Virus record (IMG/VR): IMGVR_UViG_3300045988_180666
Length of the DNA: 31,872 nt
Strand: one strand, 5' to 3'
DNA from: a virus
Lineage: Duplodnaviria; Heunggongvirae; Uroviricota; Caudoviricetes
The translations under genes and the position numbers were made by a program. Position 1 is the stretch's first letter. Every line of letters begins with the position of its first letter. Below the pieces are notes generated by a model. The model was not told where the DNA came from. It saw only the letters and a program-made list of their open reading frames with translations, and did no database searches. Below are positions 13,576-25,951 of the stretch, piece after piece.

Positions 13576-13598
13576 GCAACCGCCATATTGAAAAGACC

Positions 13599-13619
13599 TT
13601 TTTCCCGCTGCCGGGAAAA
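13599..13619. terminator. Hairpin TTTTCCCG-CTGC-CGGGAAAA between the AT-rich block and the downstream gene
   Basis: 8-bp perfect stem with T/A runs built into the arms. The orientation is ambiguous. It is plausibly a weak terminator for the 13855-15112 operon. Confidence 0.3.
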
Positions 13620-13854
13620 TGATACTTTATAGGCATAAAAAAAGCCCACGGCGTGAAGCCTAGGCGAAACAGTCGCCATCGCTGAGTAGATTACTACTAT
13701 CTTATAACCGATGGCAAAAGTACGAAGAATAATTGGAACCGCCAAAAAAAAAGCGAGAAATTTTGAAATAAATGACTTTTTTATGTTTTAGAGCATAAAA
13801 CAAGGGGGTGAGGAACGAAAAAGCCCCGGATGCTCACGCACCCGAGGCTGACAG

Positions 13855-15149: not shown

Positions 15150-15265
15150 ACGGATATTTTTTGTAAATCGCAAATTTAATGATAAATTTAACAACAAAAA
15201 TTGCAATAAAGATTGGAAAATGGTATATAAAAAATGCTCGACCGCTTTTTGGCTCTTGCCAGACG

Positions 15266-15321
15266 CTTTCGCCGCAGGCGAAAATTTTTGGAAAATGAGG
15301 GGGAAGGTTTTAGCCTTCCCC
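15266..15321. terminator. Pair of adjacent hairpins downstream of radC: TTTCGCC-GCA-GGCGAAA+TTTTT (plus sense) and GGGGAAGG-TTTTAG-CCTTCCCC
   Basis: A 7-bp stem followed by ATTTTT on the plus strand, then an 8-bp GC-rich stem 20 nt beyond the RadC stop. Together they look like a bidirectional terminator module. Confidence 0.4.
15277..15297 (+). repeat. Direct repeat copy 1 (GGCGAAAATTTTTGGAAAATG). Copy 2 is at 16777-16797, with a degenerate third copy at 16734-16754.
   Basis: 19/21 identity between 15277-15297 and 16777-16797. The two copies bracket the radC/PRTase cassette. Confidence 0.6.
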
Positions 15322-15340
15322 TTACCTTATTATATATATA

Positions 15341-16024
15341 TTATAGCTTTCCTTTGTCGTGGTAGCTGTAGAAGCCATCCTCAGCCAAGATGATATGGTC
15401 CATCAAGAAAAGTCTCATCACCTCGCACGCCTTGGCTATCTTCTGCGTGAGCATATCGTCCGCCTTGCTCGGCTGCGTGCTGTTCGATGGGTGGTTGTGT
15501 GCCACGGCGATGATGGTTGCATTGTTGAGCACGGCTTCTTTCATTATCAGTCGAACGTCCACCGCTGTCTCGGTGATGCCTCCCTCGCTGAGCTTGGTGC
15601 ACTTTATCAGCCTAAAGTTTTGGTTCATCAGCACTACCCAAAAGCCCTCTGTCTCATTGCAGCCTATCATTGGGCGAAGATAGTTGTAGAGTGCCAGGCT
15701 GCTGCCTAGGTCGGTGTTTCTCGCTACCTTTTCCATTTGGTAGCGTCTGCCTAGCTCGATGGCTGCCTGTAGGGCTATCGCCTTGCAGTCTCCAATTCCT
15801 GGTACCACTTCCAGGTCTTCTATTCTCGCCTTGCCGATGTTGCGAAGCGAGTTGCCCATGATGTTATAAATCTGTCGTGCCTGCTCTTGGCTGTCCTTGG
15901 TACCTGCCCCTCTGTTGATTACCAAAGAAATCAAGTCAACGTTGGTAAGGGTGTCGAAACCTTGGTTATAGGCTCTGTACTGCGGTCTCTCCTCCATACA
16001 AAGATTGTTATAATTTTGTCTCAT
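15341..16024 (-). CDS. radC: RadC-like JAB/MPN-domain protein (UPF0758 family)
   Basis: N-terminal helix-hairpin-helix (LEVVPGIGDCKAIALQAAIELG). C-terminal JAB motif VAHNHPSNSTQPSKADDMLTQKI (HNHPSG..PS..D signature). Confidence 0.7.
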   Translation of the reverse strand: MRQNYNNLCMEERPQYRAYNQGFDTLTNVDLISLVINRGAGTKDSQEQARQIYNIMGNSLRNIGKARIEDLEVVPGIGDCKAIALQAAIELGRRYQMEKVARNTDLGSSLALYNYLRPMIGCNETEGFWVVLMNQNFRLIKCTKLSEGGITETAVDVRLIMKEAVLNNATIIAVAHNHPSNSTQPSKADDMLTQKIAKACEVMRLFLMDHIILAEDGFYSYHDKGKL

Positions 16025-16039
16025 ATCTTTTGTTATTTG

Positions 16040-16564
16040 TTAGTTATACATTCTCTTTGTTCTCGCTAGGAACATCGCTCCCATCACTTGTGCGCCACAT
16101 TCGGCTAGCTCGTTGGCGAACTCTCGGGCGGTCGCTCCGCTCGTCACCACGTCGTCGAAGATGATGACTTTCTTTCCGCTGAAGTACTCTCTATCGAGTG
16201 CCACTCTGTAGTCGAAGCTCTCACACACTCTGTCTGTGCTGAAGTGCTTGGCTGTGCGCTCTCCATAGATGGAAATGTGCTCGTTTCCGTTCTGTACCTT
16301 TGCGCCTTGGCTCACCTTTTGGGCGAAGCGAGAAAAGCGCTTGGTGTACTTCTTTGAGTTGGCTGCTGGAGCGCAAACCATCACGAAGTCGCTGGCTTTG
16401 TCGCCATAGGTGTTGACGAAAGAGCTGACCACCATATCGGCAGCTGCGTCTGTCGCCCACTGCTTTCCATCCTTGAAGGCAAAGATGAAGTTTCTCACTT
16501 GCTCTGCTTGTGCTGAGCGGTCGAAACGCTTGGAGCTGTACTCGTAATAATTGAAAGTTTTCAT
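16040..16564 (-). CDS. ComF/GntX-like type I phosphoribosyltransferase-domain protein (174 aa, no zinc finger)
   Basis: PRPP-binding motif VIIFDDVVTSGATA near the C-terminus. The FVMVCAPAANSKK...RFSRFAQ arrangement resembles the ComFC core. There is a 15-nt gap to radC. Confidence 0.6.
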   Translation of the reverse strand: MKTFNYYEYSSKRFDRSAQAEQVRNFIFAFKDGKQWATDAAADMVVSSFVNTYGDKASDFVMVCAPAANSKKYTKRFSRFAQKVSQGAKVQNGNEHISIYGERTAKHFSTDRVCESFDYRVALDREYFSGKKVIIFDDVVTSGATAREFANELAECGAQVMGAMFLARTKRMYN

Positions 16565-17359
16565 ACGCTTAAAATTTTTATTCTAGCCAGAGGGAGGAAG
16601 GAGCTTTTTTATTTGAACTCGTCTTTGCCTGCCCGTCTGAGAGTTTTTTTTATTCTGTCCGTCGGTCGTTTTTGTCGCTTTTTACGGTGCGATGCAGACG
16701 AGCGGAGAAGAGGTATGAAAGCCAAGGAATTTTGCAAAAAGTTTATGGAAAACCGTCATCTCTGATTGCGGAAGGCTGCCGAAAAGTTTTTGGAAAATAG
16801 ATTTATCGGTACTTGGTGCATGCCGTCCGCCGTACCTTTGCACCCGAAAAAGAGATAATGACCGATGGATAACCGATAAAGGGAAAAGCTCTCGGACAGG
16901 AAAAGCGGGCAAAGAAAAGGCTCTGCCTTACCTTGGTGGTTAAGCCTTAGCGACGTTTGAGCGCCATCACGGTCACCACCGCTTGAAAATTCGCAAATTT
17001 TAACCCTAGCGTATGAAATGAAAGATGGAAAATTTGCGTCATCAAAAACACCATGTTTTTCAGACTTCAGGAGGAAAAACATACCTTGGAGCGATGAAAT
17101 CGCAGCATTTGGCATGCTTCGACCCCGAGGTTGAAGATGCCGAATGTGTCGTTTTGCGACAGGTTTTCCACACCCACGGATTGGAAAACCCCGATTTTAT
17201 CGTGGTTTTAGGGATTCAAAGGGAAAATAATTCCCCTTTGTCGGCGATAGCACCCCCCACCGCCCTACGCCCGAGCGCGCCTTCCGCCCCCTTGGAAAAG
17301 ACGGAATATGTAAAAGACCGTTAACGTTTTTGTAGGAATGTAAAAAGCCAAAAGGCACG
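16565..17359. other. Non-coding region, purine-rich on the plus strand, with multiple inverted repeats. It contains no plausible ORF.
   Basis: Only short, low-complexity ORFs occur on either strand. It contains a 10-bp IR CGCAAATTTT/AAAATTTGCG (16997-17039) and a 9-bp IR GGTTTTCCA/TGGAAAACC (17165-17193). It also carries repeat copies 2 and 3 and recurring GGAAAA(C/T) motifs. Confidence 0.4.
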
Positions 17360-17392
17360 AAAAAAGGGAACACGCTTCGCAGCGCACTCCCC
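17360..17392 (-). terminator. Rho-independent terminator downstream of terL
   Basis: Minus-strand RNA GGGAGUGCGC-UGCGAA-GCGUGUUCCC gives a 10-bp stem including 3 G-U pairs, followed by UUUUUU. It lies about 70 nt after the terL stop. Confidence 0.55.
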
Positions 17393-17462
17393 TTATCGGC
17401 GGTCAAGCAAGAATGCCAGCCACCTAACTTATATAAGAATCGTACTATCTAAAGAAATCAAA

Positions 17463-19064
17463 CTATAGCATGGAACCCGTGGCGATGTAGCCATCAGCCT
17501 GAGGGTATTTCTCCATGCCAATCATGAGCGTGTCGTAGGCATCGGAGCCATCGGTGCGAGCCTCCAACTTATCCTCCTCGGTCTCAGCCAGCTTCTCGCC
17601 TCGCTTATCCTTCTTGCCGTTGTAGACCCCGGCCAGGCGGATGGAGATGAGCAGGTCTTCGTTGTTCTCGCTGTTGATCATCGAGCGATGCTCAGCCTTG
17701 CCGAGGAACATGCGGTTGAGCAGAAGCATCTTTTCGAGATGTCCCATCGGGTTGCCCAGATAGACCTCGTTGACATACCAGCCATGGTCGGTGAGGTAGT
17801 CGGTGATGAAGGTATGGAAGTCATCGTTCATCAGGGCGTAGTTGTTGCCCACGAAGGTGGAGTCGTAGTAGAAGTTGACCTCTTTGCACCGATGGTACTC
17901 ATAGTACTGCATGAACTTGTCGAGCAGGGCTGGCAGCTTCTCCTCATACTTCACGAAGATGCTCTTGAGGCAGCGTGCCTCGCCCCGCAGGTTGTCTTGT
18001 CCGACGGCTATCCAGTTGATGAGGGCGTTGGCATCGAAGGCGATGCAGAGCGGACGGTCGGGGTCAACGTCGGCATCCATTCTGGAATCTACATGCTTGA
18101 GCTTGTCGATGTCGTAGCCCAAGCCATCGAGGTAGGCGAGGTTGGGCGCCGTGTATAGGTTGGCATCCCTGAGGTTGGAGTAGAAGCCATCGAGCGAGAT
18201 GGAAGGTCGCTTGCACATGATGGAGGTCTGGAAGGTGAGGGCAGGGAGGTCTCGCTTCATCTGCTTGATGAACTCCATGCCGAGCACCTCGATGTTATAG
18301 ACCGATGAGTACTCTTTATAGAAGAGTGCCTTGGAGCGCAGTTGCGCCAGGAGCTGACCAATCTCTCGGAGTCGGCGCTGGGCATAGCCTGAGACATGGC
18401 CCGAGGTCTTGATGCGGTTGCGTATGTCATACTCCTCTACCACGAGCGAGGCGATGGCGTCGATGAGCAGCTGGTCGCAGTCTTTCTTGTAGTTGAGGAA
18501 CCAGGAGCCCTTCTTGGTCACGGGCATATCAGAGGTGATGAGCATGCCATGGTGGTAGTAGTGCTGGCCGAAGAGGTTGACGTTGCCTCGATTGGCAGGG
18601 AAGGTCTCGTCTTTGAGCTGTTCGAAGTTGATGAACTTCGCCTCGTCGATGTCGAGGTAGTCGAGCGAGAGGGAGTTGGAGGTACCCTTGCGGTCTTGCG
18701 AGATGATGGTACCGATGGAGCCGTTATAGAAAGAGATGGTGTTCTCCCAGTTGCTGGGCGGTATGACCGGGTCGGGCCATCCCAGTTTTTTGGGAGGCTT
18801 GACCCCGATGAGATAATGCTTGCCCCGGTGGAAGCCCCATCGCTCCCAGTGCTGAAGCATCGACGGTATGGTGTTGGTGAGGCATCGCTTGGTGTTGGCG
18901 GATACGAAGCCGCCGTTGCTGCCAGGCATGCGCTGCATGTTGCGCAGGTTGAAGGTGGCGTGGAGAATGCTCTTGCCGATGCCTCGACCGCCCACGACCA
19001 CGTTGTCGCGGGCGGAGATGAGGTTGACCTCCATCTGGGCTGGGTTGAGATATTGATCTATCAT
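17463..19064 (-). CDS. terL: Terminase large subunit
   Basis: Walker A GGRGIGKS near the N-terminus and Walker B LDYLDIDEAKF. Size is 533 aa. The start overlaps the upstream gene by 4 nt. Confidence 0.8.
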   Translation of the reverse strand: MIDQYLNPAQMEVNLISARDNVVVGGRGIGKSILHATFNLRNMQRMPGSNGGFVSANTKRCLTNTIPSMLQHWERWGFHRGKHYLIGVKPPKKLGWPDPVIPPSNWENTISFYNGSIGTIISQDRKGTSNSLSLDYLDIDEAKFINFEQLKDETFPANRGNVNLFGQHYYHHGMLITSDMPVTKKGSWFLNYKKDCDQLLIDAIASLVVEEYDIRNRIKTSGHVSGYAQRRLREIGQLLAQLRSKALFYKEYSSVYNIEVLGMEFIKQMKRDLPALTFQTSIMCKRPSISLDGFYSNLRDANLYTAPNLAYLDGLGYDIDKLKHVDSRMDADVDPDRPLCIAFDANALINWIAVGQDNLRGEARCLKSIFVKYEEKLPALLDKFMQYYEYHRCKEVNFYYDSTFVGNNYALMNDDFHTFITDYLTDHGWYVNEVYLGNPMGHLEKMLLLNRMFLGKAEHRSMINSENNEDLLISIRLAGVYNGKKDKRGEKLAETEEDKLEARTDGSDAYDTLMIGMEKYPQADGYIATGSML

Positions 19065-23027: not shown

Positions 23028-24053
23028 TTATGCAAACTGATTTAAAACATCCAACACTTGATCTGAGCAGAAATCCTCGACCTTGGTGTCATCGACAGCA
23101 GTGTGCGTGTCGCCACCAGGCTCTCCCTCCAGATCCTTCACTTTATCCTTCAGGTCATCTCTCTCCTTTTCGAGATTCTTGACCTTAGTCTCTAACTCCT
23201 TCTTCTCGTCCTTGACCTTCTGAAGCTCTGTGTCTTTGTCGGTCACGGCCTTGGAGTCGGCAGCGATCTTATCCTCCAGTTTCTGCATCTGCTCCTGTGA
23301 GATTGTGCAGTTCTTTGCGGAATCTTCTGCCTCAATGCCCTCGATATTGAGGACATTGTTGATGTGAGTCCATTTTTTGATCATATTAATAATTTTATTT
23401 TGTGATTTATCTTTGCCGAATAATCGGTCGATGATGCTTGGCTTTTTATCATACCAGGAGTTAACAACCTCTGGGAGAACAGGAAGGTTGTTGTACTTGA
23501 TGAAGTCTTGCGTCTGCTCGGTGATGTCGGCAGGCTTGCCATCCATGGCTTCATCGACGAGACCCAGTTCGATGCACTCATCGACGGTGTGCCACATCGC
23601 TTCGGACATCACCTTGACGATGTCCTCGTGCTTCTTGCCCGAGCGATCGCAGTAAACGTTGGCGATGATGTTGTCGATTTTCTGCTGGTTCTCTTGCTGT
23701 TTTTGAAGTTGCTCGATGAGCGAGCCTATCTGCTCCTCGTTGAGCGCAGACCACACAAACTGCTCGGTAGAGCACTTGTGTACCAGGAGCAAGCTATATT
23801 TGCTCATGCGAATCTTGCTGGCACCCATCGCACAGATGGTGGCAGCAGAGGCAGAGAAGCCCGCCTGGAAGTCAACGGTCACGTCGCCATGGGACTTGAA
23901 CATCTGACAGATGGCGAGACCTGCGGAGACCTCGCCACCCAAGGAGTCGATGGCAACATCGACGTGCTTATCTTTGTTGGCCTTAAGAACATCGCGAACC
24001 ATGAGCTTGGTCCACGAGCCAATATATCCTGTGATAGAAATTTGGTACTTCAT
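23028..24053 (-). CDS. ClpP-like (S14) prohead protease fused to a C-terminal coiled-coil scaffold domain
   Basis: The N-terminal half has ClpP-like segments (DSLGGEVSAGLAICQ, FSASAATICAMGASK). The C-terminal roughly 100 aa is a K/E-rich coiled coil (KDTELQKVKDEKKELETKVKNLEKERDDLKDKVKDLE). Confidence 0.65.
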   Translation of the reverse strand: MKYQISITGYIGSWTKLMVRDVLKANKDKHVDVAIDSLGGEVSAGLAICQMFKSHGDVTVDFQAGFSASAATICAMGASKIRMSKYSLLLVHKCSTEQFVWSALNEEQIGSLIEQLQKQQENQQKIDNIIANVYCDRSGKKHEDIVKVMSEAMWHTVDECIELGLVDEAMDGKPADITEQTQDFIKYNNLPVLPEVVNSWYDKKPSIIDRLFGKDKSQNKIINMIKKWTHINNVLNIEGIEAEDSAKNCTISQEQMQKLEDKIAADSKAVTDKDTELQKVKDEKKELETKVKNLEKERDDLKDKVKDLEGEPGGDTHTAVDDTKVEDFCSDQVLDVLNQFA

Positions 24054-24085
24054 ATATCTTTGCGATTTTTACGGCGCAAAGATAT
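24054..24085. promoter_or_regulatory. 11-bp perfect inverted repeat ATATCTTTGCG-N10-CGCAAAGATAT abutting the protease start codon. Each arm contains a TATCTTTG -7 box.
   Basis: Read directly from the sequence. The right arm gives a minus-strand -7 box about 30 nt upstream of ATG 24053. The left arm gives a plus-strand copy. Confidence 0.5.
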
Positions 24086-24113
24086 ATAATAATGTATAAG
24101 GATAAAAAAACTT

Positions 24114-25209: not shown

Positions 25210-25216
25210 TTTTCGT

Positions 25217-25226
25217 GCAAAGATAC
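25217..25226 (-). promoter_or_regulatory. -7 box TATCTTTGCA for the head/packaging operon
   Basis: Plus strand tgcaaagata; the -33 element is non-canonical. Confidence 0.4.
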
Positions 25227-25299
25227 AAAGAAAATTTGAAATAACTAACGATAATCGGTAAAAACTAACTTTTATCAGTAAATTTGGTGTGATATAATT

Positions 25300-25600
25300 T
25301 CGTCCGAAAAGTTTGTATTTTTGTATCGTACAAACAAGGCTCTGTAACTAGCTGATAATCAATACTATTTTTGTGATACAATTTTCTGATACAGAAATTG
25401 TAACTCTTTAGCTTTTGTAACTTGGGGTTTTGTCGAGGTCGAAGACCTGTAGGAGAAGGGGCTTGTTACAAACTTGAAAAACTTTGTAACAGAGTTGTAA
25501 CGCAACTTTGTAAACATCGGCAAGGCGGCTTAACTCCATCTTTTATAATTATTTACCTCTTTTGCCAACATTATGTTACAGAGTTACAAAGGATTTGTAT
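25300..25600. repeat. Iteron array: about 12 copies of TTGTAAC / GTTACAA and TTGTAT variants. Putative replication origin or regulator-binding array.
   Basis: Copies at 25343, 25398, 25415, 25465 (inverted), 25484, 25495, 25508 (TTGTAAA), 25575 and 25584 (inverted). There is also a TTGTA-TCG-TACAA palindrome at 25321-25333. The array lies just downstream of the primase-helicase gene. Confidence 0.5.
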
Positions 25601-25731
25601 AAAATAAAAGAAAGGGGTGTGGGGAAAACGATGGCACGGGGCGTGAAGGAGGATAGGGAAGGCCCATCGAGACACCCAGGACACCCCCATTGGCCAATGG
25701 AGGGGTAGCGAGACGAAACATCGCCCATGGC

Positions 25732-25770
25732 AACGAAAAAAGGGAGCGACGGCCAATGCGCATCGCTCCC
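25732..25770 (-). terminator. Strong rho-independent terminator for the primase operon
   Basis: Stem GGGAGCGA/TCGCTCCC (8 bp) with a 12-nt loop. On the minus strand it is followed by UUUUUUCGUU. Confidence 0.65.
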
Positions 25771-25951
25771 TCGTAACATGGGAAAAGAATTATAAATCAG
25801 CAAAAATCTGCCTATGAAATCAGCCCTCGTCTGCTTGCAAAAATAGTGAAAAATTGCTTGAAAATTTAGCCGAAAATATTTGCATAATTCAGATATTTTT
25901 TGTACCTTTGCACTATAACTTGGGGCTATCTATTCTATTATATATGGATGG

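Follow-up and report, generated by a model that had tools for sequence, protein, structure and literature searches.

The locus described here raises the question of what a tailed phage carries in 0.9 kb of DNA that contains no gene. The stretch analyzed, hereafter the window, comprises 31,872 nucleotides of IMG/VR virus record IMGVR_UViG_3300045988_180666 (Caudoviricetes), and the gap in question lies at positions 16565–17462, between two minus-strand genes encoding the terminase large subunit (TerL) and a phosphoribosyltransferase (PRTase), the latter followed by a gene for a RadC-family protein. The initial annotation, made from the letters alone, treated the gap as a single unit and proposed that it specifies structured noncoding RNA (ncRNA), serves as a long 5′ leader, or contains a packaging (pac) or recombination site. 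Our analyses instead divide it into two modules, 16559–16983 and 16984–17440. The left half of the gap folds on the plus strand into a giant hairpin, which the initial annotation overlooked together with the promoter that it contains, although the structured character that it ascribed to the region is real. Based on the architecture of this hairpin and on analogy with the Frpo/ssi elements of plasmids, we tentatively read the left half as a single-stranded-DNA (ssDNA) promoter with Bacteroidota −33 and −7 boxes, a reading that we prefer without considering it probable.

The gap is noncoding and conserved

To assess the gap, we gathered 72 related viral loci via TerL. The longest open reading frames (ORFs) within 16565–17462 encode 119, 99, 76, and 69 amino acids, and the description of the gap as ORF-free holds in that no ORF exceeds 119 amino acids. 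In 29 related sequences, substitutions in the gap are spread evenly over the three codon phases (~0.30/0.33/0.36), whereas in the flanking genes 55–96% of substitutions fall in one phase; from this even distribution we conclude that the gap is noncoding on both strands. The 99-amino-acid plus-strand ORF at 17025–17324 and the 119-amino-acid minus-strand ORF were considered as hidden protein genes and rejected for lack of a codon-phase signal. The former survives as an ORF of 72–99 amino acids in many relatives, with substitutions that show no codon periodicity, and the latter is also retained as an ORF in some of them. A decayed pseudogene is ruled out, as none of the homologues has a gene at this place. 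Relatives that carry the PRTase and RadC genes are 77–99% identical to the window over ~860 nt of the gap, and per-site variation is ~0.07–0.17 compared with ~0.25 at third codon positions of the TerL and PRTase genes. The region is thus, as first supposed, structured and constrained: it is noncoding, its structure is better on the plus strand, and it varies less than third codon positions do.

A giant hairpin in the left half of the gap

The plus strand of the gap is antisense to all adjoining genes, and its left half contains nested inverted repeats that fold into the following structure:

16559–17018, plus strand: giant imperfect hairpin, recognized from nested inverted repeats and folding
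16559–16726: 5′ arm of the hairpin
16727–16811, plus strand: apex region with two small hairpins and the blocks GGAAAACC (16747–16754) and CGGAAGGCTGCCG (16769–16781)
16812–17018: 3′ arm of the hairpin
16950–16994: side branch
16633–16900, plus strand: conserved core of ~270 nt, helices 1–8 of alignment A3

Folding of the plus strand of 16550–17030 with RNA parameters gives a minimum free energy (MFE) of −175.6 kcal/mol (z −8.1) with a centroid identical to the MFE structure, compared with −127.4 kcal/mol (z −2.35) for the minus strand of the same segment; the hairpin comprises 167 pairs, 25 of which are G-U. With DNA parameters (481 nt), the plus strand reaches −84.5 (z −5.6) and the minus strand −64.5 (z −2.0). 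In a GC-corrected 480-nt ssDNA scan the hairpin is the most stable fold of the entire 31.9-kb window; a raw 300-nt ssDNA-energy scan was discarded because GC-rich genes dominated it. The conserved core folded as ssDNA (16628–16922, 295 nt) shows the same preference: its plus strand reaches −50.8 kcal/mol (z −3.9), its minus strand −33.9 (z −0.95). The outermost 19 pairs (16559–16577 with 16995–17018) cover the PRTase start codon; given that this outer helix is specific to the sub-clade of the window and that the L068 and L041 clades do not conserve it, start-codon sequestration is not a conserved feature of the element.

Comparative evidence supports the core. In alignment A3, which contains 11 diverged sequences, 92.1% of the cells at 52 long-range pairs can pair, compared with 45–49% when the partners are slid against each other, and both-sided changes occur in 18 pairs compared with 3–7 in the slid controls; none of 500 shuffles matches either value. 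The covarying helices include the spacer of the promoter described below, and the loop strand opposite its −7 box is variable. At the apex, the blocks GGAAAACC and CGGAAGGCTGCCG are near-invariant across families.

A Bacteroidota-type promoter in the 3′ arm

Bacteroidota sigma-A promoters have the octamer TAnnTTTG as their −7 box. The window contains 37 copies compared with 12 expected, and most minus-strand genes are closely preceded by one. From this three-fold enrichment just upstream of genes we conclude that the host belongs to the Bacteroidota. The intergenic boxes of the phage read TAnnTTTGCA, an extended consensus of its own promoters. A scan for sigma-70 consensus promoters returned none, which is uninformative given that the host uses Bacteroidota boxes. 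The gap contains a single promoter of the Bacteroidota type, CTTG-N17-TACCTTTGCA at 16812–16843 on the plus strand, and its parts occupy defined places in the hairpin:

16812–16815, plus strand: −33-like CTTG, which opens the 3′ arm next to the apex and pairs with CAAG at 16723–16726
16833–16840, plus strand: −7 box TACCTTTG, followed by GCA to 16843 as in the phage's own extended consensus
16680–16686, minus strand: predicted start of the PRTase–RadC mRNA if the folded plus strand is the template, opposite ~16845–16847, with a leader of ~120 nt

The −33 element and the spacer are paired with 16698–16726 of the 5′ arm, where 16702–16706 and 16826–16830 form helix 5, and the CTTG–CAAG pairing is the invariant helix 8 of A3. 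The −7 box, which is the sole TAnnTTTG on either strand of 16565–17462, lies in an internal loop in which 16834–16837 are unpaired opposite the variable, noncomplementary stretch 16693–16697; pairing restarts at the last G of the box, with 16838–16844 paired to 16686–16692 and 16847–16852 to 16678–16683. The box is conserved though its nn positions vary, as in TAAATTTG of the L041 clade. Within the 3′ arm the promoter is directed from apex to base. The gap contains no promoter box on the gene strand and no plus-strand terminator, and a search of the PRTase ORF found no conserved antisense promoter from which a plus-strand RNA might cross the hairpin.

Three loci from an unrelated fecal phage (L073, L111, and L130) contain a 130-nt homologue of the apex and promoter (16723–16848) that is 74.6% identical. 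In L073 (3890–4173) this homologue lies in an intergenic gap near an ArdC-like anti-restriction gene, with flanking genes on the opposite strand. We considered this family as a second example of the hairpin and rejected it, as apex and promoter are present without a giant hairpin fold. A motif search of viral contigs with GTACTTGG...CGTCCRCCGTA recovered, beyond the window family, only these three loci; the rest were chance matches in genes.

Linkage to the cassette and recurrence in Bacteroidales phages

The two modules behave differently in relatives. The segment 16559–16983 moves with the PRTase–RadC cassette and disappears with it, whereas 16984–17440 is retained in all relatives, including those with other cargo. 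In loci of the L008 type (L008, L018, and others) window position 16984 is joined directly to 15215; L052 retains sequence down to 16877, and L004 retains sequence down to 16931 plus the 3′ end of the radC gene. Judged from these junctions, the loci look like independent deletions of one cassette composed of the hairpin, PRTase, and RadC.

The same architecture recurs beyond close relatives. We examined loci L057–L072 (TerL 52% identical), L107–L110 (found via PRTase homologues), and ~20 genome loci (L150–L170) of Prevotella, Segatella, Phocaeicola, and Bacteroides, most of which consist of TerL, 0.5–1.5 kb of noncoding DNA, PRTase, and RadC; element homologues number roughly 60. The diverged gaps cannot be aligned to the window by BLAST, yet they fold with z-scores of −7 to −15. 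The pattern [C/T]TTG-N15-20-TAnnTT(T/C)G is present on the antisense strand, 230–330 nt from the PRTase ATG, in 16 of 20 representatives; among the diverged families, boxes of the form CTTG-N17-19-TAnnTT(T/C)G occur. In these 16, the −33 element sits at the first pair after the apex and 12–20 of 20–24 spacer bases are paired to the 5′ arm; in 12 of them 4–6 of the 8 bases of the −7 box are unpaired. The predicted leader measures 112–130 nt in most families. Among the hairpin-bearing loci inspected (~30), none has a gene-strand box near the PRTase ATG, and one or two gene-strand terminators stand between TerL and the hairpin. The chromosomal comF homologues of Segatella, which served as a negative control, have an ordinary gene-strand promoter and no hairpin; the more distant PRTase homologues L171–L188, used as a negative control, are chromosomal comF genes with ordinary promoters.

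The promoter is antisense, 259–262 nt from the PRTase start, in all nine metagenome contigs that contain PRTase, and no inverted ("ON") copy is present in the co-linear viral loci, the ~30 inspected loci, or these nine contigs. In 18 of the 20 representatives, the template strand yields the better fold. An orientation-neutral count, arm against arm, gives G·T to A·C ratios of 14:4, 14:3, and 12:3 in the window clade. The strand preference is real in the window clade and is not universal, and this count weakened our use of strand bias as universal proof of template-strand folding.

In three of the genome loci (L162 2494–3835, L166 2624–3946, and L168 1–3898) the 1.3–3.9 kb upstream of the PRTase homologue contain no ATG-started ORF of at least 110 amino acids, and L162 and L168 have a promoter-like box 500–560 nt from the ATG. 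These gaps may represent the element in an enlarged form or contain further noncoding elements.

A candidate single-stranded-DNA promoter and its alternatives

We propose that the hairpin may act as a promoter when the plus strand, which is the template of PRTase and RadC, is single-stranded. The core at 16633–16900 would then fold back on itself, in the window clade as far as 16559–17018. The 3′ arm would become the nontemplate strand of a promoter, with CTTG at 16812 and TACCTTTGCA at 16833–16843, and the 5′ arm its template; the −33 element and spacer would be duplex, and the −7 box would be held in a ready-made bubble. We infer that RNA polymerase would start opposite ~16684 and copy the 5′ arm into PRTase and RadC, producing a sense mRNA with a leader of ~120 nt. 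In duplex DNA the boxes face away from the operon. As the operon then lacks a promoter and is located beyond the TerL terminator, it should be silent. Replication intermediates, 5′–3′ resection from a packaging-side DNA end, and DNA uptake are candidate sources of the single strand, the cause of single-strandedness being likewise a part of the model that we deduce. As regards resection, the cassette is always transcribed away from TerL; were a DNA end to lie on the side of the terminase, 5′–3′ resection would leave precisely the template (plus) strand. The ssDNA-promoter model accounts jointly for the hairpin, the position and orientation of the boxes, the pairing of the spacer but not of the −7 box, the lack of a promoter on the gene strand, and the linkage to the operon, and we give it a tentative preference on these grounds. 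With somewhat greater reserve, we suggest that the element may be a phage switch that senses the state of the DNA, such that PRTase and RadC are transcribed only when their template strand is exposed and folded.

Several observations weigh against this model. The elements reside in tailed double-stranded-DNA phages or prophages, for which no stage with a single-stranded plus strand is known, and among the ~25 ORFs scanned there is no relaxase, conjugation gene, or oriT context. The DNA fold of the core, at −50.8 kcal/mol, falls short of the −75 kcal/mol per 300 nt that served as a heuristic threshold in a search for plasmid ssDNA promoters (PMC12672017), and the fold relies on G-T wobbles that are better suited to RNA. 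The box of the Prevotella clade, TAACTTCG or TAAATTCG, departs from the consensus (TTCG for TTTG), full-consensus boxes probably also fire in duplex DNA, away from the operon, and the L073 family has the apex and promoter and no giant hairpin. The orientation-neutral count is 166:108 (G·T to A·C) in total and ~1:1 in the Prevotella clade, compared with a ratio of 1.0–1.4 predicted from composition alone; part of the strand bias could stem from the G+T-rich composition of the plus strand. The covariation between arms could also arise from template-switch correction and not only from selection.

The alternatives differ in the molecule on which the hairpin would act. The one that we take most seriously, though we think it unlikely, is control at the RNA level, in which the operon is transcribed by read-through from TerL or from an unrecognized promoter and the hairpin in the mRNA leader is an RNase III, stability, or translation element. 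The internal promoter would then produce a cis-antisense RNA from ~16846 rightwards, which would pair perfectly with the upstream half of the leader and remodel it, much as a type I antitoxin would keep a ShosT-like toxin in check. The G-U-rich pairing, the stronger z-scores with RNA than with DNA parameters, the expectation that a full-consensus promoter works in double-stranded DNA, the resemblance of the PRTase to the toxin ShosT (PMC11961720), and the hairpin base covering the start codon in the window clade all suit this explanation, as does a fold in the Prevotella clade that is equally good on the gene strand. Yet the gene-strand fold is poor in the window clade (RNA z −2.35; DNA core z −0.95), the start-codon helix is not conserved outside the sub-clade, transcription would have to pass one or two good terminators on its way from TerL to the hairpin, the gene strand offers no promoter box, and the contrast between a paired −33 element and spacer and an unpaired −7 box is left unexplained. 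The same facts bear on the earlier suggestion of a structured 5′ leader of the PRTase operon, which is not supported in its original form, as the operon has no gene-strand promoter box and sits behind the TerL terminator. A riboswitch finds no support either: a scan with 4227 Rfam models returned no match at the gathering score in the whole window and none even at E ≤ 10 in 16400–17600. If the element instead yields structured plus-strand ncRNA, from the hairpin, from the conserved element to its right, or from both, acting as a regulator, decoy, or antitoxin, one would understand why both regions fold better on the plus strand and are more conserved than synonymous sites. We regard this as improbable, given that no conserved plus-strand promoter lies upstream of the 5′ arm, that the sole plus-strand promoter is inside the hairpin and its transcript would miss the 5′ arm, that there is no plus-strand terminator, that relatives keeping the right-hand element have lost the promoter, and that Rfam contains no match. 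The proposal of a plus-strand RNA spanning both hairpin arms is not supported, for want of a conserved promoter, nor is that of an antitoxin RNA of the ToxI kind for want of a tandem array: 16400–17600 contains no tandem repeats, which the type III (ToxI-like) arrangement demands. Neither a tRNA nor a tmRNA was found.

A site recognized in double-stranded DNA, for protein binding, recombination, packaging, or replication, or a promoter that can invert so as to face PRTase, would be consistent with the constant position next to TerL and with the enrichment of TGGAAAA and GGAAAA, which resemble repeated binding sites; on this reading the promoter would simply yield an antisense or orphan transcript. 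Invertible promoters are common in Bacteroidales, and recombination between the arms beyond the box would, we reason, turn the promoter toward PRTase. This explanation too seems unlikely to us, and only slightly less so than plus-strand ncRNA. The promoter is antisense in all nine metagenome contigs with PRTase, viral loci spanning the cassette are co-linear with the window over ~860 nt, and the ~30 inspected loci contain neither a gene-strand box nor an inverted copy. Pairing with compensatory changes continues across the segment that would have to invert, and site-specific inversion has no need of such pairing. The strand asymmetry of the window clade is unexpected for recognition of a duplex. 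The hairpin is also deleted with the cassette in relatives that are otherwise intact, and therefore it is not an essential pac or replication origin site; a pac or recombination site is possible in the right-hand module. Finally, the hairpin could be functionless: a promoter-plus-leader unit duplicated in inverted orientation, now decaying, and hitchhiking with the cassette. Inverted repeats are found at other promoter regions of the phage, and template switching can maintain quasi-palindromes; maintenance of the hairpin across families whose sequences cannot be aligned, retention of a one-sided −7 box across those families, and variation below that of synonymous sites make this explanation very improbable.

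Comparison with known systems

The closest known analogue of the element is the ssDNA promoter of conjugative plasmids; the phage element would be a variant of it that extends to another host group and another type of mobile element. In Frpo, a stem-loop reconstitutes −35 and −10 elements and drives the downstream genes from a single strand, and Frpo-like elements are reported to be off in duplex form (PMC9849209, PMC11541004, PMC12672017). The Frpo, ssi, and ssp elements of F, ColIb-P9, and pESBL are, like the phage element, ~300-nt noncoding elements directly upstream of the genes that they serve. In the window the hairpin base abuts the PRTase ATG and 16565–17462 has no coding signal; the stem-loop is long, with DNA z-scores of −5.6 (481 nt) and −3.9 (core) and an absolute energy under the heuristic; two host boxes are properly spaced (CTTG-N17-TACCTTTGCA, with TTCG in the Prevotella clade); and the boxes lie on the 3′ nontemplate arm, with the genes 5′ of the hairpin and templated by the same strand. 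The phage element differs in its context, a tailed prophage downstream of TerL instead of a leading region near oriT, in its Bacteroidota −33/−7 boxes instead of sigma-70 −35/−10 elements, in its weaker predicted DNA fold, and in its full-consensus boxes, which are probably active in duplex DNA as well. The likeness is one of architecture; sequence homology is not expected across phyla.

Other systems share single aspects of this arrangement. In the minus-strand origin of M13/f1 and the sso of rolling-circle plasmids, an ssDNA hairpin mimics a promoter and is used by the host RNA polymerase in one orientation; these elements make a short primer for the complementary strand and are essential for replication, unlike the phage hairpin, which is dispensable and tied to an operon. 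The invertons of Bacteroidales resemble our element in that a promoter lies between inverted repeats beside a gene without a promoter of its own. They differ in that the contigs examined here contain no inverted copy (rare inversion is possible) and that repeats of ~100 nt or more covary through the promoter. The virion RNA polymerase promoters of phage N4 likewise depend on recognition of a DNA hairpin in a tailed phage (PMC4496689, PMC13434306), with stems of 5–7 bp, loops of 3 nt, and a phage polymerase, compared with a stem of ~100 bp or longer and host sigma-A boxes in the window. GOLLD, ROOL, HEARO, and riboswitches are also long, conserved, structured noncoding stretches of phage or prophage DNA, whereas the phage element matches no Rfam model, and a retron is not indicated, as the neighbors are TerL, PRTase, and RadC and the scanned ORFs contain no reverse transcriptase domain. 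Our literature search found no report of an ssDNA promoter in any tailed phage apart from N4, whose system is unrelated, and to our knowledge a host-type promoter in the arm of a giant hairpin has not been described in tailed phages.

The ssDNA promoters of plasmid leading regions time the first burst of anti-defense gene expression, and the architecture described here is widespread in prophages of gut genera (Prevotella/Segatella, Phocaeicola, and Bacteroides), beside a cassette related to toxin-antitoxin defense and DNA-uptake proteins. If the ssDNA-promoter model is correct, such promoters, known from conjugative plasmids of Proteobacteria, would occur in phages too and with boxes of the Bacteroidota type, the constant position downstream of TerL would be linked to which strand becomes exposed, and the expression of phage genes could be coupled to the physical state of the phage DNA. 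The element would then provide a handle on the timing of single-strandedness in phage genomes and a self-limiting promoter part for Bacteroides engineering. If control at the RNA level is correct, the element would represent a family of large structured leaders with antisense promoters that is missing from Rfam.

Module A and local structure in the right half

The right half of the gap persists where the left half is lost, and it has the following features:

17019–17359, strand not assigned: module A, a highly conserved noncoding element with long near-invariant runs in the 25-sequence alignment A2
17084–17213, plus strand: three-way junction in module A that includes the hairpin at 17162–17190, from MFE and centroid structures
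17053–17061 / 17074–17082: further hairpin, not listed in the initial annotation
17217–17226 / 17231–17240: near-hairpin with 90% complementary arms, better on the minus strand
17311–17334: palindrome around CGTTAACG

Given that module A survives the loss of the cassette and promoter, we regard it as an independent element. It may bind terminase or serve in packaging, or it may be a single-strand element in its own right. The consensus fold of the three-way junction is better on the plus strand (−53.3) than on the minus strand (−40.5), with few broken pairs, alternations between A-U and G-U and between U-A and U-G, and a few double changes. In L016 and L003, module A is interrupted by insertions of ~80–110 nt (A2 columns 360–450) that include tandem GGTACGGACTT-like repeats and GCAAAC(C)TTG repeats.

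The gap is as rich in hairpins as initially claimed, with four perfect local hairpins of at least 9 bp compared with 0.18 expected; none of 300 shuffles reaches four. Two hairpins reported earlier are real and needed adjustment of their limits: that placed at 16997–17039 has its exact arms at 16992–17001 and 17029–17038, and that placed at 17165–17193 at 17162–17170 and 17182–17190. The claim of a purine-rich plus strand is true only in a weak sense, with a purine fraction of 0.528 in the gap compared with 0.485 in the whole window, 0.424 in the PRTase and RadC genes, and 0.514 in TerL; the runs of GGAAAA on which it drew are real (nine copies in the gap compared with 1.2 expected). Of the heptamer TGGAAAA the window contains 16 copies compared with 4.3 expected, nearly all on the plus strand, with six in the gap and two just past RadC; sites include 15214–15220, 15289–15295, 16746, 16791, 17026, 17164 (minus strand), 17182, and 17293. 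The two copies beyond RadC lie near the cassette boundary at 15215. This heptamer could be a repeated protein-binding site.

Cargo genes and locus context

The genes and terminators that frame the gap are as follows:

17463–19064, minus strand: TerL, 533 amino acids, phrog_2 match (1e-4)
17360–17392, minus strand: intrinsic terminator of TerL, GGGAGUGCGC...GCGUGUUCCC followed by U6, read from the sequence
16040–16564, minus strand: PRTase, 174 amino acids, ComF/ShosT-like type I phosphoribosyltransferase (PF00156, 4.5e-7)
15341–16024, minus strand: RadC-family JAB protein, 227 amino acids, second gene of the cassette (PF04002, 1.2e-35; NF000642, 1.1e-51)
~15300–15325: terminator-like stem after RadC, read from the sequence

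The gap lies, as initially described, after the TerL terminator and upstream of PRTase, whose ATG is at 16564–16562. The consensus fold of the terminator is better on the minus strand (−23.7) than on the plus strand (−13.5) and includes one compensatory U-A/A-U pair. TerL is 34% identical over 98% of its length to the annotated TerL of Microcystis phages, and, together with a ClpP-like protease and a long ORF at the position of the tape-measure gene, it identifies the context as that of a tailed double-stranded-DNA phage or prophage. A search for cultured relatives that might reveal its mode of packaging or replication found no close ones. The cumulative GC skew climbs steadily over all 31.9 kb, the plus strand being G- and T-rich, and nearly all genes are on the minus strand.

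Among PADLOC models, the PRTase matches ShosT (1.6e-9), PsyrT (9e-9), and, weakly, the retron III-A PRTase (2e-4); its match to TIGR00201 comF (1.6e-7) is far under the cut-off. Identification of the PRTase as ShosT through solved structures was rejected because the match is limited to the phosphoribosyl pyrophosphate (PRPP) loop. ShosT is a PRTase toxin neutralized by a DprA-like DNA-binding protein, and the cargo resembles ShosTA/PsyrTA in combining a prophage-borne protein of the PRTase fold with a competence or DNA-processing partner (PMC11961720). The partner here is RadC (JAB) and not a DprA-like ShosA, and the similarity to ShosT is that of the PRPP loop.

A further parallel concerns function. 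ComF, DprA, and RadC are all tied to incoming single-stranded DNA in natural transformation, a link that fits the theme of ssDNA and proves nothing.

Other structured regions of the window

Three further regions of the window have inverted repeats. A noncoding gap at 13576–13854, upstream of a gene for 121 amino acids, is an outlier of the GC-corrected ssDNA-fold scan on both strands and holds two 17-nt imperfect local inverted repeats. At 25210–25951 there is a second large ORF-free gap, AT-rich and 740 nt long, with six TAnnTTTG boxes distributed over both strands and 70% complementarity between two 54-nt arms (25210–25263 and 25865–25918); this gap probably serves as a divergent control region. 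A perfect 13-bp inverted repeat, ATATATCTTTGCG / CGCAAAGATATAT, lies at 24052–24087 between the gene for the ClpP-like protease (23028–24053) and a gene for 139 amino acids, and, with TAnnTTTG boxes on both strands, could represent back-to-back promoters or a hairpin.

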